Shown piece after piece: positions 21,656 to 51,564 of a stretch of DNA of 64,000 nt. The notes under the pieces were generated by a model, which saw only the letters and a program-made list of their open reading frames with translations, was not told where the DNA came from and ran no database searches. A program made the position numbers and the translations under genes. Source of the stretch: a virus (Duplodnaviria; Caudoviricetes); the IMG/VR virus record IMGVR_UViG_3300024232_000009, positions 24,243-88,242 of that record; one strand, given 5' to 3'. Every line of letters starts with the position of its first letter. The stretch's first letter is position 1.

Positions 21656-22182
21656 AGTTCGATTTCCCGCGCGACGATCTTCGGTGCCTCAACCTCGCGG
21701 ATTTGGTCAAGGTCAAGTTCACGCTTGCCGGGTGGCGGCGGTTCAGCGGGCACGGCCTCGGCCTGGGTAGGCGCCACCTCCAAGCCCTGGTAGCCCGGCT
21801 GCTGCCACGGCTGAAGAACGGATTGGCCAAGCCCCTGGTCAATCCCCTGACCAAGGTACTGCTGGATCGCCAGCGCCTGCAGGTAAGCCTGCTGCTGTTG
21901 CTCGGCATTATAGCGTTGTGCAACGCCCATCCACTGAGGCGTGCTTGGCGTGGTGATCGTGCCACCGCCCACCAACACCGAACCAATCGCACCACCAGCG
22001 ATAGACCACGGCATGCCGTTATTCCTTCCTCGTGGTGGAGACTGCGACCCCATTATCGCCTGCCGGTTCCGCTCGGCGATTTCCGCCATGACAGCCCTGT
22101 CCTGCTTTCGGCAGGCTTCCTCCCAGCGTCGGTCATCCGCAGGCGTCGCGTTCAGTGGAGGGCCGCTACCGTATGCCATCAC
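21652..22182 (-). CDS. Gln-rich hypothetical protein
   Basis: 176 aa, coupled. Confidence 0.55.
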   Translation of the reverse strand: MMAYGSGPPLNATPADDRRWEEACRKQDRAVMAEIAERNRQAIMGSQSPPRGRNNGMPWSIAGGAIGSVLVGGGTITTPSTPQWMGVAQRYNAEQQQQAYLQALAIQQYLGQGIDQGLGQSVLQPWQQPGYQGLEVAPTQAEAVPAEPPPPGKRELDLDQIREVEAPKIVAREIEL

Positions 22183-31496: not shown

Positions 31497-31591
31497 CGCT
31501 CCACCCGAGGGATAGGCCAGCAGGCTGGTCTATCTCCCGCGTGACGCGGATCGACAGGGCGCCTCGCCTGATTTCAGGGGCTGGAACGAAA

Positions 31592-48604: not shown

Positions 48605-48801
48605 TGTTCGTTTCTCCCCAGGATTTCGCGCTCCCGTCGATCCATCGCCTCGGCCTGGATGTGGTGGCAAATGCGACTGACCAGGATACGGCGCATGTGT
48701 TCGTCGCCTGTGCGACAGGCATCCGCATGGGCACGTGCCAGGCGGTCAATTATTATGCTTCGATCGTTCGGCTCTGGTCTTGTTTCAGGATTTGTCGCCA
48801 T
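48601..48801 (-). CDS. Hypothetical protein
   Basis: GGAG RBS; overlaps the recombinase 3' end. Confidence 0.55.
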   Translation of the reverse strand: MATNPETRPEPNDRSIIIDRLARAHADACRTGDEHMRRILVSRICHHIQAEAMDRREREILGRNEQ

Positions 48802-49441
48802 CGGCTGACTCCTTCGCTTGTGCAGCGCGGATCCGCTTGGAAATGCCCTGCTTGGTGAACCCCATGTCCTTGGCGATCTCTTCCAATGTCTCGCCCTTGT
48901 GCAGTCGGCAGATCGCCTGCTTGACCTGTTCGTCGGTGATCTGTTGACGTCGGCCCCCGAGGCGCCCCATTGATCGCGCTACAGCGAGGCCGTGGCGGGT
49001 ACGTTCGACAATCAGGTCGCGCTCCCATTCAGCCAAGGCGGCGATGAAGTTGAAAAGCAGGCGTCCGGTCGCTGTCCGGGTATCGATGTCCATAGTCAGG
49101 ACTTTGAGGTTCGCGCCTCTTTCATGGAGATCCCGCACGGTTCTCACCAGCTCGATCAGGTCGCGGCCAAGGCGGTCGATGGAGTGGACGACAAGCAGAT
49201 CACCGGCCCGAATGTCTCTCCAGCAGCCCTGCCAGCCCGCGCGGTTCATGCTGCGACCGCTTGCCTTGTCCTCCCAGATGTCGCGCGGATCGACCCCGAA
49301 CGCCTCGAGCGCATCCTTCTGTCGGCGGTTGTCCTGGTCGCCGGTCGAGACCCGCGCGTAGCCGATCATGATCGAGCCGTCTGGCAGTGTCGGGCCTCGA
49401 CGAGGGACTTCTTCAGAGGGCTCGGACGGCGTTTTCGACAT
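48785..49441 (-). CDS. Small serine recombinase (resolvase/invertase family) with C-terminal HTH
   Basis: GYARVSTGDQ (catalytic Ser), EDKASG...R, GDLLVVHSIDRLGR, ERDLIVERTRHGLAVAR..GR.GGR, HTH; start ATG 49441. Confidence 0.93.
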   Translation of the reverse strand: MSKTPSEPSEEVPRRGPTLPDGSIMIGYARVSTGDQDNRRQKDALEAFGVDPRDIWEDKASGRSMNRAGWQGCWRDIRAGDLLVVHSIDRLGRDLIELVRTVRDLHERGANLKVLTMDIDTRTATGRLLFNFIAALAEWERDLIVERTRHGLAVARSMGRLGGRRQQITDEQVKQAICRLHKGETLEEIAKDMGFTKQGISKRIRAAQAKESADGDKS

Positions 49442-49529
49442 GTCAATTCCACTATCACGGCGATAGTTGGTTGACAAGTTGGTTTCGCGACGGTATGTCC
49501 GATTTCGCAATAAGTCAACGATACGGACA
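49441..49529. promoter_or_regulatory. res-like recombinase binding region with divergent overlapping promoters
   Basis: Palindrome TGTCAA..ACTATC..GATAGT..TTGACA (49441-49476); TGTCCG-N22-CGGACA (49496-49529); plus promoter TTGACA-N17-TATGTC (49471-49499); minus promoter TTGACT-N17-TACCGT (49518-49490). Confidence 0.7.
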
Positions 49530-49753
49530 ATCGAAAATGACGACCTTTGGCCCTCGGGCGTGATGCGCTCCATCCTCAAAAATCTGGTCATGCGGACGGC
49601 AAGCCGAGTAACCCGTCCGACCCCGACTGCCGGGGTAGCTGTGGGGCGCGTCGCGCGTCCGATCTGGAGGCAGGAACCGGCGTTAATGGCTCAGTGCGGG
49701 CGATGACGTTCGGGCGCGACGATTTTTTGCGTGTAACCAAACGGACAAATGCA

Positions 49754-50068
49754 ATGAAATACCCGCCAGACATTGATCGGGAGTGCATCGCCCTCTGTGA
49801 TGCACTCAACTGTCTACCGGGTATCATGACCTTCGAGTCATGCTGTGGACACGGCATTCACCCGCATCGAATTTTCTTTAATGCCGACACTATTCAGGAC
49901 TTGCGGCCGATCGTCACGAGCACATCCAGTTCAGGATGGGCGGTCGAATGTCGGTATGCCAATGGGTCAGACACTATCTACTTCCTTCTGGAAGGCCCCC
50001 GAGGCCCGGCTGAAATGCATGGCGGAGCAAACGATCTGGCGTCCTGGATCACCAATCGCGCAACCTAA
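49754..50068 (+). CDS. Cassette gene: Tyw3/Taw3-like domain protein (tentative)
   Basis: DID..CIALCDALN.LPGI.TFESCCGHG resembles the Tyw3 N-terminal T.SSCSG motif. Confidence 0.6.
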   Translation: MKYPPDIDRECIALCDALNCLPGIMTFESCCGHGIHPHRIFFNADTIQDLRPIVTSTSSSGWAVECRYANGSDTIYFLLEGPRGPAEMHGGANDLASWITNRAT

Positions 50069-50088
50069 ACACCAAACGGAGAAATGCG

Positions 50089-50352
50089 ATGGTGCAAAGT
50101 TTCTGGCTACAAAACGGCATGGGTGGCAAGCACATCCTAGTTGATATGGGCAGCGCCGAGGAACAAGCCGTGCGCGATGCGACTGACCGACTGGCGCCGA
50201 TGCTGGGCCGCGGCAATATCCAGATTGTGGGGAATGCCAGGGTGACCGTGCGCCTCTCTCCAAAGAAGGCCGACGCCATCCTGGCGCAGTTCCCGCAGAT
50301 CGTCGCGGGAGCAGCGGGATATTGCTGGTGCACGCACGGCTGGAAACACTGA
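50089..50352 (+). CDS. Cassette gene: hypothetical protein
   Basis: 87 aa filling the interval between two repeats. Confidence 0.6.
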   Translation: MVQSFWLQNGMGGKHILVDMGSAEEQAVRDATDRLAPMLGRGNIQIVGNARVTVRLSPKKADAILAQFPQIVAGAAGYCWCTHGWKH

Positions 50353-50372
50353 GTACCAAACGGACGGAGCGA

Positions 50373-50561
50373 ATGGCCCATCACGAGACGATCGACGTCA
50401 CCTTGCCGGATCCCTTAATCGATTGCCTGGAAGCTATGCGAAAAACCGGACTGTTCGGTCTCACGACCAATGACGTCGCCAGCTATCTGATCACCCGTCA
50501 GATCGATGACATGATGCGGGCGAAGTCTCCGCTGTTGCCTGCCTCAATGATACAACCCTAA
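50373..50561 (+). CDS. Cassette gene: RHH/CopG-ParD-like small protein
   Basis: IDVTLPDPLIDCLEAMRKTGLFG...VASYLI; TAA stop lies inside the next repeat. Confidence 0.6.
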   Translation: MAHHETIDVTLPDPLIDCLEAMRKTGLFGLTTNDVASYLITRQIDDMMRAKSPLLPASMIQP

Positions 50562-50569
50562 ACGGACAA

Positions 50570-50800
50570 ATGGCCTTGAAACATCTCGCCCCGTTCGCTT
50601 TTCTGCCGTTCTGCGTGGCTCTCTCTTGCGTCCTGTTTGTTCAATGGGAGCGTGCCGACGGCGCGGAATATCGCGCCCGCGAATGGGAGCGCGTCGCCAA
50701 ACAACAGGGAGGCGCTTTGGACGAATTGATGAAGGCAGACGAGAAGCTGAAGGCAGCGACAAATCGGCTACAAATCGCCTGTGCTGCACGACAACCCTAA
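50570..50800 (+). CDS. Cassette gene: single-TM + coiled-coil protein
   Basis: N-terminal hydrophobic helix, then coiled coil; TAA stop inside the next repeat. Confidence 0.6.
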   Translation: MALKHLAPFAFLPFCVALSCVLFVQWERADGAEYRAREWERVAKQQGGALDELMKADEKLKAATNRLQIACAARQP

Positions 50801-50820
50801 ACGGACGGAGCGGAACGATT

Positions 50821-51078
50821 GTGCCACATGCCCAAAGAACATCGATTATATCAACATCAAACCCGTTTGAAGACGCGCAGCGCGGGTTACATTGGTTGTT
50901 GCGGCATCCCACCACTCAAACTGAGCCAGGCCTCTATTTCCACGGTTGGAGCAAACTGTTCGGAGAAGATCGTTGGTGGGCGGTTGATGAATTAGATCAG
51001 CCCGATTCTGACTGGACGGCCGGCGACATGCTGAAAGAAGGATGGAAATATGTGCGCCCATGGTCGGACGCAGATTGA
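50821..51078 (+). CDS. Cassette gene: Trp-rich hypothetical protein
   Basis: GTG start after GGAG; ends 4 nt before the next repeat. Confidence 0.5.
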   Translation: MPHAQRTSIISTSNPFEDAQRGLHWLLRHPTTQTEPGLYFHGWSKLFGEDRWWAVDELDQPDSDWTAGDMLKEGWKYVRPWSDAD

Positions 51079-51099
51079 GAGATCCAAACGGAAGTCTCG

Positions 51100-51273
51100 A
51101 TGCCCAAATACGTTGTCGAAATGAAGGAATGGGTCGAATACGAAACCTCGTGCGAGATCGAGGCGCGTGACCCGACCGAAGCTCGGCGACTTGCGAATGA
51201 TGAGGCGGACAGTTGGGGGCGCACCGGGCGCGTGCGCGACACCACAAAGATTGTGCGCCGCGCAAAAGACTGA
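51100..51273 (+). CDS. Cassette gene: 57-aa protein (MPKYVVEMKEW...EIEARDPTEARRLA); not in ORF track
   Basis: Exactly fills the interval between repeats 7 and 8; KY.V...V.A....EA pattern (DpnD/PcfM-like, tentative). Confidence 0.6.
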   Translation: MPKYVVEMKEWVEYETSCEIEARDPTEARRLANDEADSWGRTGRVRDTTKIVRRAKD

Positions 51274-51564
51274 CAACCATACGGACAAAGGGAATCTGGT
51301 GAAGCGAACGGCGGTGTGGAAGGACACACAAGGTGTGCGCGGTCAGGCCGATGCCCCGGGGACTAAGCCGGATCAGCATGTTCGGAGCGCGTGGACGCAA
51401 CTCTTGGCTCTGACGGTGTGGAACCGCCGGCGGGGTATCACACAACGCAGGGATGACGCCCTGCCCGCCTACTGAGGCCCAGCAGCCGATGTCAATTTCG
51501 GCCCGCCGCTTCACCAGACCTGAGTGACAACACCGATCCCCCGCATCGGGGTAGCGTCAAGCGG

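Follow-up and report, generated by a model that had tools for sequence, protein, structure and literature searches.

A putative start-associated junction repeat punctuating a hypervariable operon of small accessory genes in a soil mobile-element lineage

Results

Anatomy of the array

The subject of this work is a row of small genes in the IMG/VR virus record IMGVR_UViG_3300024232_000009 (Duplodnaviria; Caudoviricetes), a soil-metagenome record of 88,242 nucleotides (nt) with a CheckV completeness estimate of 88%, of which bases 24243-88242 (64,000 nt, hereafter the window, whose positions are used throughout) were analysed. Within 1.77 kb of the window lie eight + strand copies of a 12-mer of the form (A/C)C(C/T)A(A/T)ACGGA(C/G/A)(A/G). 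Seven small + strand open reading frames (ORFs) of 104, 87, 62, 76, 85, 57 and 58 amino acids (aa) come behind these copies, and a small serine recombinase is encoded divergently beside them. A preliminary description of this DNA, made from its letters, had listed eight direct 12-mers and proposed an integron-like array of cassettes shuffled by the recombinase; all eight copies were re-located, and the recombinase is a genuine one (Pfam Resolvase, PHROG_125). After comparison with related loci, the most fitting description of the 12-mer is that of a new start-associated junction repeat, which would delimit a hypervariable accessory-gene operon in a soil mobile-element lineage. The repeats and ORFs of the array are as follows.

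49518..49529, + strand: junction repeat copy 1 (ACGATACGGACA), without a real ORF behind it
49736..49747, + strand: junction repeat copy 2 (ACCAAACGGACA), 6 nt ahead of the ORF1 ATG; the 21-nt family D1 reaches the start codon
49754..50068, + strand: cassette ORF1, 104 aa, Cys-rich, no family; only viral hypothetical clusters in the protein atlas
50071..50082, + strand: junction repeat copy 3 (ACCAAACGGAGA)
50089..50352, + strand: cassette ORF2, 87 aa, with a C-terminal YCWCTHGW motif; the sole window cassette with homologues found elsewhere
50355..50366, + strand: junction repeat copy 4 (ACCAAACGGACG, then GAGCGAATG)
50373..50561, + strand: cassette ORF3, 62 aa
50557..50568, + strand: junction repeat copy 5 (CCTAAACGGACA), the TAA of which is the ORF3 stop
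50570..50800, + strand: cassette ORF4, 76 aa, with a hydrophobic N-terminus
50796..50807, + strand: junction repeat copy 6 (CCTAAACGGACG), the TAA of which is the ORF4 stop
50821..51078, + strand: cassette ORF5, 85 aa, GTG start; frame picked for ending 4 nt ahead of copy 7
51083..51094, + strand: junction repeat copy 7 (TCCAAACGGAAG)
51100..51273, + strand: cassette ORF6, 57 aa
51276..51287, + strand: junction repeat copy 8 (ACCATACGGACA), family D5, 14 of 15 nt the same as in copy 1
51299..51475, + strand: probable last cassette ORF7, 58 aa, GTG start, with its own AAGGGA between repeat and start

Each ORF starts 1-13 nt past a repeat, and the stop codons of the first six either lie 2-4 nt ahead of the following repeat or are part of it, being then the TAA of CCTAAACGG, in agreement with the arrangement first reported. 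The first interval (49530-49735) contains nothing but an 8-codon mini-ORF. The assignment of one unrelated small ORF to each of the other six intervals was borne out by codon-usage log-odds trained on the long genes of the phage, which ranged from -0.06 to +0.31 for the + strand ORFs, while every overlapping antisense ORF, including one of 222 aa, scored lower (-0.22 to -0.50); ORF7, behind copy 8, is additional. The array ORFs show no mutual relatedness, none of the seven matched a family in Pfam or PHROGs, and the protein atlas gave no usable function for them. No promoter-like sites above chance were detected within the array, as had been proposed for the cassettes, nor was anything promoter- or terminator-like seen at the junctions, and a search of Rfam returned no family in the region.

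The junction motif is specific to the array

The motif A[AT]ACGGA occurs eight times in the 1773 nt of the array, on one strand, versus 12 times in the remaining ~86 kb with both strands counted; only 0.12 copies would be expected (Poisson P about 1e-12). Six of the 12 occurrences of AAACGGA in the window fall in the array. A repeat that was just the general ribosome-binding site (RBS) of the phage would be equally common at its other gene starts, which is not what was found: none of the A[AT]ACGGA copies outside the array lies convincingly ahead of a gene start, and the other phage genes carry canonical Shine-Dalgarno (SD) sequences, such as ccAAGGAGtcaatcgaccGTG and tttGAGGAGGctcgaccgATG.

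Alignment of 28 copies, picked by a regular expression that demands the GA of the core, gave the consensus (A/C)C(C/T)AAACGGA(G/C)(G/A), with TATCCTAAACGGAGGCGATGATG and AAACGGACGGAGCGGA..ATG as longer recurrent forms. The 3' half of the relatives' junctions reads GGAGG or GGAG (G at +7 in 16 of the 28 copies), often as GGAGGCGAT(G), which agrees at 8 of 9 positions with the anti-16S sequence GGAGGUGAU; conservation is equally strong in the CC(A/T)AAAC half and in the SD half. Across all the arrays, AAACGGA mostly lies 7-8 nt ahead of the start codon, and the motif is confined to one strand. Intergenic gaps are only 15-25 nt long and are occupied by the motif, which extends into the final codons of unrelated upstream ORFs, e.g. 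TATCCTAAACGG. Departures from this pattern comprise out-of-register junctions of the form AAACGGA-CGGAGCGGA (ACGGA-CGGAG; window copies 4 and 6, and two of the comparison loci introduced below, L108 and L012) and relic motif copies without an ORF (window copy 1, L009:2811 and L010:1165); in the L009/L010 array a motif copy follows the last gene with no gene behind it.

The junction is devoid of symmetry. Between 44000 and 56000 no 12+2+12 site with dyad symmetry of at least 10/12 was detected, and no junction has an inverted partner. A full site of the kind used by Din-type invertases is absent from the genome, in which one weak AAAC-N-GTTT core was seen, far from the array. The preliminary description had noted the lack of attC hairpins and of a tyrosine integrase, and both hold: attC-type inverted repeats or hairpins are missing from the 12-20-nt junctions, and no PF00589 match was obtained in the 88-kb record.

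Distribution of the junction among related loci

The junction recurs in seven further distinct arrays, L006, L009/L011, L010, L012, L108, L109 and L111/L112 (L-numbers label comparison loci and WIN the window's own array), along with L194 (L194/L195), a junction row of just two genes, and L115, with a diverged variant. The homologues of ORF2 share 74, 61 and 54% identity with it, and 45% in two IMG/VR contigs. The 74% homologue is the fourth gene of a junction row on L006, a 1.6-kb Logan contig with the junctions cTAAACGGAGA, ACCAAACGGAGC, cTAAACGGAGGCGACGATG and ACCAAAACGGAGA. Just upstream of it lies an NT5C-like gene (152 aa), members of which at least 90% identical occur on other Logan contigs; its contexts in L009/L011, L010 and L012 are + strand rows of small genes with the junction at nearly every boundary, on one strand.

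The recombinase of L009, 41% identical to that of the window, is the divergent neighbour of its row. Its use as query led to L108 (a JGI contig of 24 kb that carries VirB4/VirB3/TrbC along with a tyrosine integrase), L109/L110 (part of an NCBI metagenome-assembled genome, with a ParA-like gene), L111/L112 and L194/L195, all of which have the junction on the divergent side. A recombinase stands divergently beside the arrays of WIN, L009, L108, L109, L111/L112, L194 and the variant L115; among arrays with a visible upstream side the exception is L010, where unrelated genes take that place and no recombinase occurs within 1.3 kb upstream. Most of these recombinase-linked arrays came from searches with the recombinase as query, and mutual identity among the recombinases of junction arrays is as low as 41%. 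In the L109 array five distal genes are without the motif.

Further out, the loci L113-L115, with recombinases 48-64% identical, have divergent small-gene rows with looser junctions, e.g. TAACCCCAAACTGAGGCCGACATG, TAACCCCGGAGG and AACCCCAAAGGAG, which retain a C-rich element and the SD; in L114/L115 the junctions vary (CCCCGGAGG, CCCCAGGAGG, AAACTGAGG) with the SD always at the right distance. Among 80 IMG/VR relatives of the L009-type recombinase (at most 64% identity), a position weight matrix (PWM) found no strict-motif arrays, with diverged junctions in L115 and L113/L114 only, and the PWM scan of ~1.4 Mb of fetched loci gave none elsewhere. No array accompanies the closest out-of-group homologues of the window recombinase, which share 60-63% identity and come from Asaia and from a JGI contig. 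Motif arrays are also missing from 60 JGI loci in which NT5C-like homologues occur, a few of them reaching 86% identity, so the NT5C-like gene is widespread and the junction lineage-specific. In other phages (L004/L005, L007 and L008) an ORF2 homologue stands by itself, with no motif.

No match was obtained with the region as blastn query against GenBank phages, with the ORF2 alignment as query of metagenomes, or, as near relatives, in IMG/VR protein scans with the window recombinase and with a GP88-like neighbour. The patterns ACCAAACGGASRRRNGCRATG and CYAAACGGAGGCGAYGATG, scanned over IMG/VR and GTDB genomes, gave single chance matches only and no arrays.

Several observations on these loci stand apart from the junction itself. 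In L007:4976-6366, an unrelated IMG/VR phage, a 45% ORF2 homologue is bracketed by two 103-nt copies, 96% identical and 1288 nt apart, and in L008:5960-6300, also an IMG/VR phage, a 45% ORF2 homologue is accompanied by a 23-nt repeat, CCGCGCACACCCACCCAGGACAC, directly before two consecutive start codons, which suggests that repeat-flanked insertion of an ORF2-type gene recurs with different repeats. A TAACGGA cluster in the IMG/VR phage locus L137 was rejected as a motif array, being a duplicated gene pair on the other strand; it is a tandem-duplicated two-gene unit (53-55 aa plus 58 aa; L137:2097-3657) upstream of a 40%-identical recombinase. The recognisable array-gene families comprise a DNA methylase (PF00145) and a DHHA1-domain protein at L108:3854-6956 (- strand), a crAss001_48-family protein (PF21825) at L010:1299-1490 and the NT5C-like nucleotidase of several arrays, and the leftward operon of L109 includes a Lar restriction-alleviation-like gene. 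These families would be consistent with counter-defence or host-takeover cargo.

Gene content changes at the junctions

Only three families (the NT5C-like gene, ORF2 and a 72-aa protein) are common to arrays among the 47 ORFs compared from seven arrays, and the breakpoints between relatives fall at the repeats, as the earlier cassette proposal had anticipated. Starting at the motif at L009:2866-2868, L009 and L010 match rightwards at 99.4% identity over 1482 nt, and their sequences left of it are unrelated. Between L009 and L111 the recombinase gene and the leader are 96.5% identical as far as the first motif (L009:2001), past which the two are unrelated. The alignment of WIN with L006 covers ORF2 only and stops at the next motif. 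Three different genes occur just upstream of the NT5C-like gene (84-89% nt identity), which is followed by ORF2, by a 119-aa gene or by the array end, and the spacers ahead of it are unlike between arrays (GCACTAAGAC, GGCGATGAC, GAAATTGAC). The cassettes are, as in integrons, co-oriented and promoter-less, with content that varies between relatives. Since ORF2 and NT5C-like homologues also occur without the motif, genes move into and out of the arrays, and the junction belongs to the array lineage rather than to the genes; with nearly all genes differing between relatives, this is a fast-changing accessory-gene array, the turnover of which is likely to stem from recombination between the repeats. 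A 479-bp segment (67-aa and 77-aa genes) that occurs twice, 100% identical and motif-bounded, at L109:5100-6720 (- strand) was not used as evidence, as one copy adjoins a run of N and the duplication may be an assembly artefact.

The whole region is present in one soil run, probably that of its origin, and pieces of it in four others. The assembled contigs of four soil runs gave no joints or circles, contigs alone being uninformative on excision. A 335-nt contig of another soil sample (run X3, record 21) corresponds to 49571-49906 with nine differences and a 3-nt deletion; five of the changes sit in the 5 nt directly before repeat copy 2, the 12-mer itself being identical. A 265-nt contig of a further soil sample (run X4, record 26) matches 50117-50372, covering ORF2 and repeat 4 with two mismatches, and departs 6 nt past repeat 4, where ORF3 would begin, with nine unlike letters (TGTTCACCA). 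This contig may represent a variant array with another third gene, the tail being too short for judgement.

The divergent recombinase and the control region

Two features lie to the left of the array ORFs.

48785..49441, - strand: small serine recombinase, 218 aa (the public gene call begins at 49369 and gives 194 aa)
49442..49753, no strand assigned: divergent control region and leader, with ~190 nt free of ORFs, repeat copy 1 and the 8-codon mini-ORF

The recombinase combines a Resolvase catalytic domain (PF00239, E 3.7e-40, positions 1-144 of 145) carrying the YARVSTGDQ serine nucleophile motif and DRLGR with weak C-terminal helix-turn-helix (HTH) matches at residues 181-210, the architecture of a small serine recombinase. 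It matches PHROG_125 'DNA invertase' (1.7e-61), and its closest solved structure is the Gin invertase (4m6f/3uj3, E 2e-35), ahead of gamma-delta resolvase (E 8e-25). It is the only serine recombinase in the 88-kb record and the first gene of a leftward small-gene operon with ordinary AAGGAG/GGAGG sites. RecT was not found in the record; other recombination families were not searched.

The control region contains a rightward TTGACA (49471-76)-N17-TATGTC (49494-99), and a consensus promoter scan called no promoter there; the fold of the leader is not unusual (z -0.64). The palindrome TGTCCG (49496-501)-N22-CGGACA (49524-29), to which importance had been attached before, does exist and spans 49496-49529. 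Its significance did not hold up, because about four pairs of 6-nt perfect inverted arms with a gap of at most 40 nt are expected by chance in the 390-nt intergenic stretch and eight were found. The reading of CGGACA as a half-site of gamma-delta/Tn3-type resolvases fails, in that the relatives' junction ends in GG (AAACGGAGG) and not in CA, and CGGACA is not conserved. Upstream of the recombinase homologues of L009 (1919-1945), L108 and L109 there is GTTGAC-N5-9-GGTCAAC followed by a TATA-like hexamer (TATATA/TTATAG). Inverted GTTGAC/GTCAAC hexamers separate recombinase gene and array in all of the relatives as well as in the window (49468-49519), with a spacer of 38 nt in the latter versus 5-9 nt in the relatives, and they precede the 60-63% recombinase homologues L103 and L105. 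These elements are likely a bidirectional promoter or operator.

Elsewhere in the window, two similar 26-bp dyads, GGAT(T/A)GGCCA..-..TGGTC(A/T)ATC, each 10/12 symmetric, lie ~9.7 kb apart at 21820-21845 and 31510-31535 and are candidate operators of some phage regulator.

Discussion

A proposed junction repeat for translation and gene exchange

We propose, at a probability of roughly 0.5, that the junction provides each promoter-less gene with its translation start and that its direct repeats provide the short homology through which genes can be gained, lost or swapped. The functional unit would be a junction of ~20 nt with the 12-mer as its core, made up of a stop codon, (A/C)C(C/T)AAAC, GGA(G/C)(G/A), ~5-8 nt and the start codon, and would punctuate a promoter-less operon of small accessory genes that is probably transcribed rightwards, and early, from a bidirectional control region common to the recombinase operon. 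At the RNA level each junction would serve as the translation-initiation region of the gene behind it, as suggested by the position of the SD, by copies that all point one way and by an array free of internal promoters and terminators, and the relatives' AAACGGAGGCGATGATG would act as a strong extended SD. At the DNA level, direct copies every 200-450 bp would supply short homology for loss, gain, duplication and swaps between related elements, probably through general or microhomology-mediated recombination like that proposed for the PeSL repeats of T4-type phages. Joining driven by homology fits better than a fixed crossover because of the out-of-register forms, the differing spacers ahead of the NT5C-like gene and the relic copies. 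The serine recombinase, which heads the opposite early operon, would then be a conserved neighbour rather than the enzyme that shuffles the cassettes.

A number of points weigh against this proposal. The SD of the window copies is weak (GGAC/GGAA), with GGAG in copy 3 only; in three copies 3 or 13 nt separate AAACGGA from the start, the distance to the 12-mer being 11-13 nt for copies 6 and 8; and these same two copies have a second SD-like element between repeat and start, so translation is unlikely to be the whole reason for the conservation. We know of no role in initiation for the invariant CC(A/T)AAAC half. The recurrence of the recombinase as neighbour is left without explanation, and no recombination intermediates are observable. 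The breakpoints at the junctions are partly trivial, as any gene-level mosaic must break in the 15-25-nt gaps that the motif fills.

Alternative explanations

One rival explanation is an integron analogue, in which the small serine recombinase would excise, insert and shuffle single-gene cassettes at the junction repeats with the first motif acting like attI; a soil phage and plasmid-like family would thus possess a Gin-related enzyme that captures cassettes at asymmetric half-site-plus-core junctions doubling as RBSs. In addition to the divergent recombinases beside the arrays, whose identities go down to 41%, this agrees with the near-identical recombinase and leader of L009 and L111, whose homology ends exactly at the first motif, and with the gene-less motif copy that terminates the L009/L010 array. 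The enzyme is nearest to Gin, and the junction TATCCTAAACGGAGG (also given as TATCCTAAAC) resembles the reverse complement of the cixL half-site, CAATCCTAAACC, as TAAACGGAGG resembles the gix centre TAAACCGAGG; the mix half-sites read TTCCCC(T/C)AAACC (PMC3241671 Table 3). The would-be crossover GA is invariant, though the regular expression that chose the copies demands it. What speaks against the idea is that every copy is a direct repeat with no inverted partner half-site, that no dyad site lies near the array, and that stop codons stand where Din half-sites have the outer TTC/TTATC read by the HTH. The spacing to the start codon is constrained as in an RBS, the NT5C-like gene is not inherited together with the spacers on the right of the putative GA core, and some junctions are out of register. 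L010 has no recombinase nearby, five distal L109 genes lack the motif, the nearest out-of-group homologues of the window recombinase have no arrays, and the association is subject to ascertainment bias. To our knowledge, small invertases and resolvases do not integrate circles. Thus the cassette-like array and the recurrent divergent recombinase of the earlier integron-by-resolvase proposal stand, whereas the lack of dyad sites, L010 and the array-less homologues tell against it; on this sequence comparison, we regard catalysis by the neighbouring Gin-related recombinase as an alternative that is live but unsupported, and as unlikely.

Conservation beyond the needs of 16S pairing, in the CC(A/T)AAAC half, could instead reflect an operator in the mRNA, that is, a site at which a phage or host factor binds or cleaves to co-regulate the array genes. 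Conceivable factors are a translational repressor, an endoribonuclease that targets GGAG-type sites and a CsrA-like protein that binds ANGGA. The limitation of the motif to one operon, with plain SDs on the other genes, its strict single orientation and the precedent of the start-associated sequences, for which the same function has been suggested and the same question left open (PMC3203893), are in line with this, whereas no candidate factor was identified, no conserved RNA structure or Rfam match was found, and gene turnover at the repeats is not accounted for by an operator itself; we consider it rather improbable. A somewhat poorer prospect is that the repeat is a plain translation signal, the RBS of the operon, inherited or homogenised, with ordinary illegitimate recombination behind the turnover and selection keeping intact genes. 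Its SD content and spacing, and the deeper relatives that retain the SD and vary the remainder, argue for this, as against a core of 9-10 nt that is invariant over at least eight arrays with unrelated genes, the gene-less relic and array-end copies, and the reach of the junction into the last codons of unrelated upstream ORFs. Least probable of all would be a DNA operator array of the stoperator type, in which an HTH protein, possibly the C-terminal domain of the recombinase, binds the sites as monomers and silences the operon: asymmetric 12-13-bp sites in a single orientation do lie at the gene junctions, and one window copy overlaps the control region beside TGTCCG, but the sites are limited to one 1.8-kb operon and not genome-wide, and the TGTCCG/CGGACA palindrome is within chance and its CGGACA arm not conserved.

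Comparison with known systems

The proposed junction repeat is closest in kind to the start-associated sequences (SAS) of Cluster K mycobacteriophages, the function of which is open (Pope et al. 2011, PMC3203893). It is likewise asymmetric, 12-13 bp long and in a single orientation a few nt before start codons, combines an SD core with positions unable to pair with 16S rRNA, occurs with only some of the non-structural genes, which belong to different families, and sometimes includes the upstream stop codon. The two differ in consensus (GGGATAGGAGCCC in Cluster K versus CCAAACGGAG here), in host and phage group, and in arrangement, with copies packed at consecutive junctions of one operon here and scattered in the case of SAS. 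Near-complete change of gene content between relatives and an adjacent serine recombinase are peculiar to the present arrays, which have no inverted repeats of the extended SAS (ESAS) type.

PeSL-mediated modular shuffling with mini-circles was described in T4-type phages (Arbiol et al. 2010, PMC2839356; PMC4122927). There, too, short conserved intergenic repeats flank small non-essential ORFans, and indels or replacements between close relatives map to the repeats; such changes are seen here from contigs alone, mini-circles being a feature of PeSL. A PeSL unit is a promoter (sigma-70 early) plus terminator stem-loop of ~50-70 bp, unlike the junction of 12-20 nt, which has no promoter or hairpin and sits in the position of an RBS. 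With integrons the array has in common a divergent recombinase, a single upstream promoter region and single-gene cassettes that are co-oriented and lack promoters; in both, turnover between relatives is very high and the first site lies where the conserved leader ends. It departs from them in the absence of a tyrosine integrase from the record and of attC-type imperfect palindromes, in junctions of 12-20 nt without symmetry, and in a small serine enzyme, the known relatives of which need dyad-symmetric sites. Regarding these relatives, the Din invertases (Gin/gix, Cin/cix, Pin and Min), TAAAC-G-GA-GG resembles the inner half-site and core of gix, cix and mix, and the window recombinase is nearest to Gin; Din sites, however, have the form of 26-bp dyads, are paired in inverted orientation within tail-fibre genes and depend on an enhancer (site table in PMC3241671), whereas the sequences here are only half-site-like, all direct, between unrelated small genes and without the outer TTC/TTATC. 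The stoperators of Cluster A mycobacteriophages are spread through the operons of the genome, in contrast to a motif found in one 1.8-kb operon. The rAID-1 clusters of gut Bacteroidales, reportedly described by Ross et al. in 2019, are said to be recombinase-associated arrays of orphan-immunity genes that resemble the present arrays in having small unrelated genes, a conserved intergenic sequence, an adjacent recombinase and variable order among relatives, and reportedly differ in using a tyrosine recombinase, in being chromosomal or borne on integrative and conjugative elements in Bacteroidales, and in having longer, promoter-bearing junctions.

SAS, PeSL-type modular regions and integron-like layouts are thus known already; new are the 12-20-nt RBS-linked junction, the recombinase-adjacent array and the occurrence of both on phage and plasmid-like contigs. 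Hypervariable rows of small early genes are a store of host-takeover and counter-defence functions for phages and plasmids, and how such rows are built is poorly understood beyond T4-type phages and integrons. The CC(A/T)AAACGGAG junction marks such rows in a phage, in L108 with its type IV secretion genes and in L109 with its ParA-like gene, with nearly all of the gene content different, and its use as a search key would bring together many unknown accessory genes. The array offers a natural system for asking whether short RBS-linked repeats drive modular exchange, as well as a concrete candidate for a serine-recombinase cassette system.

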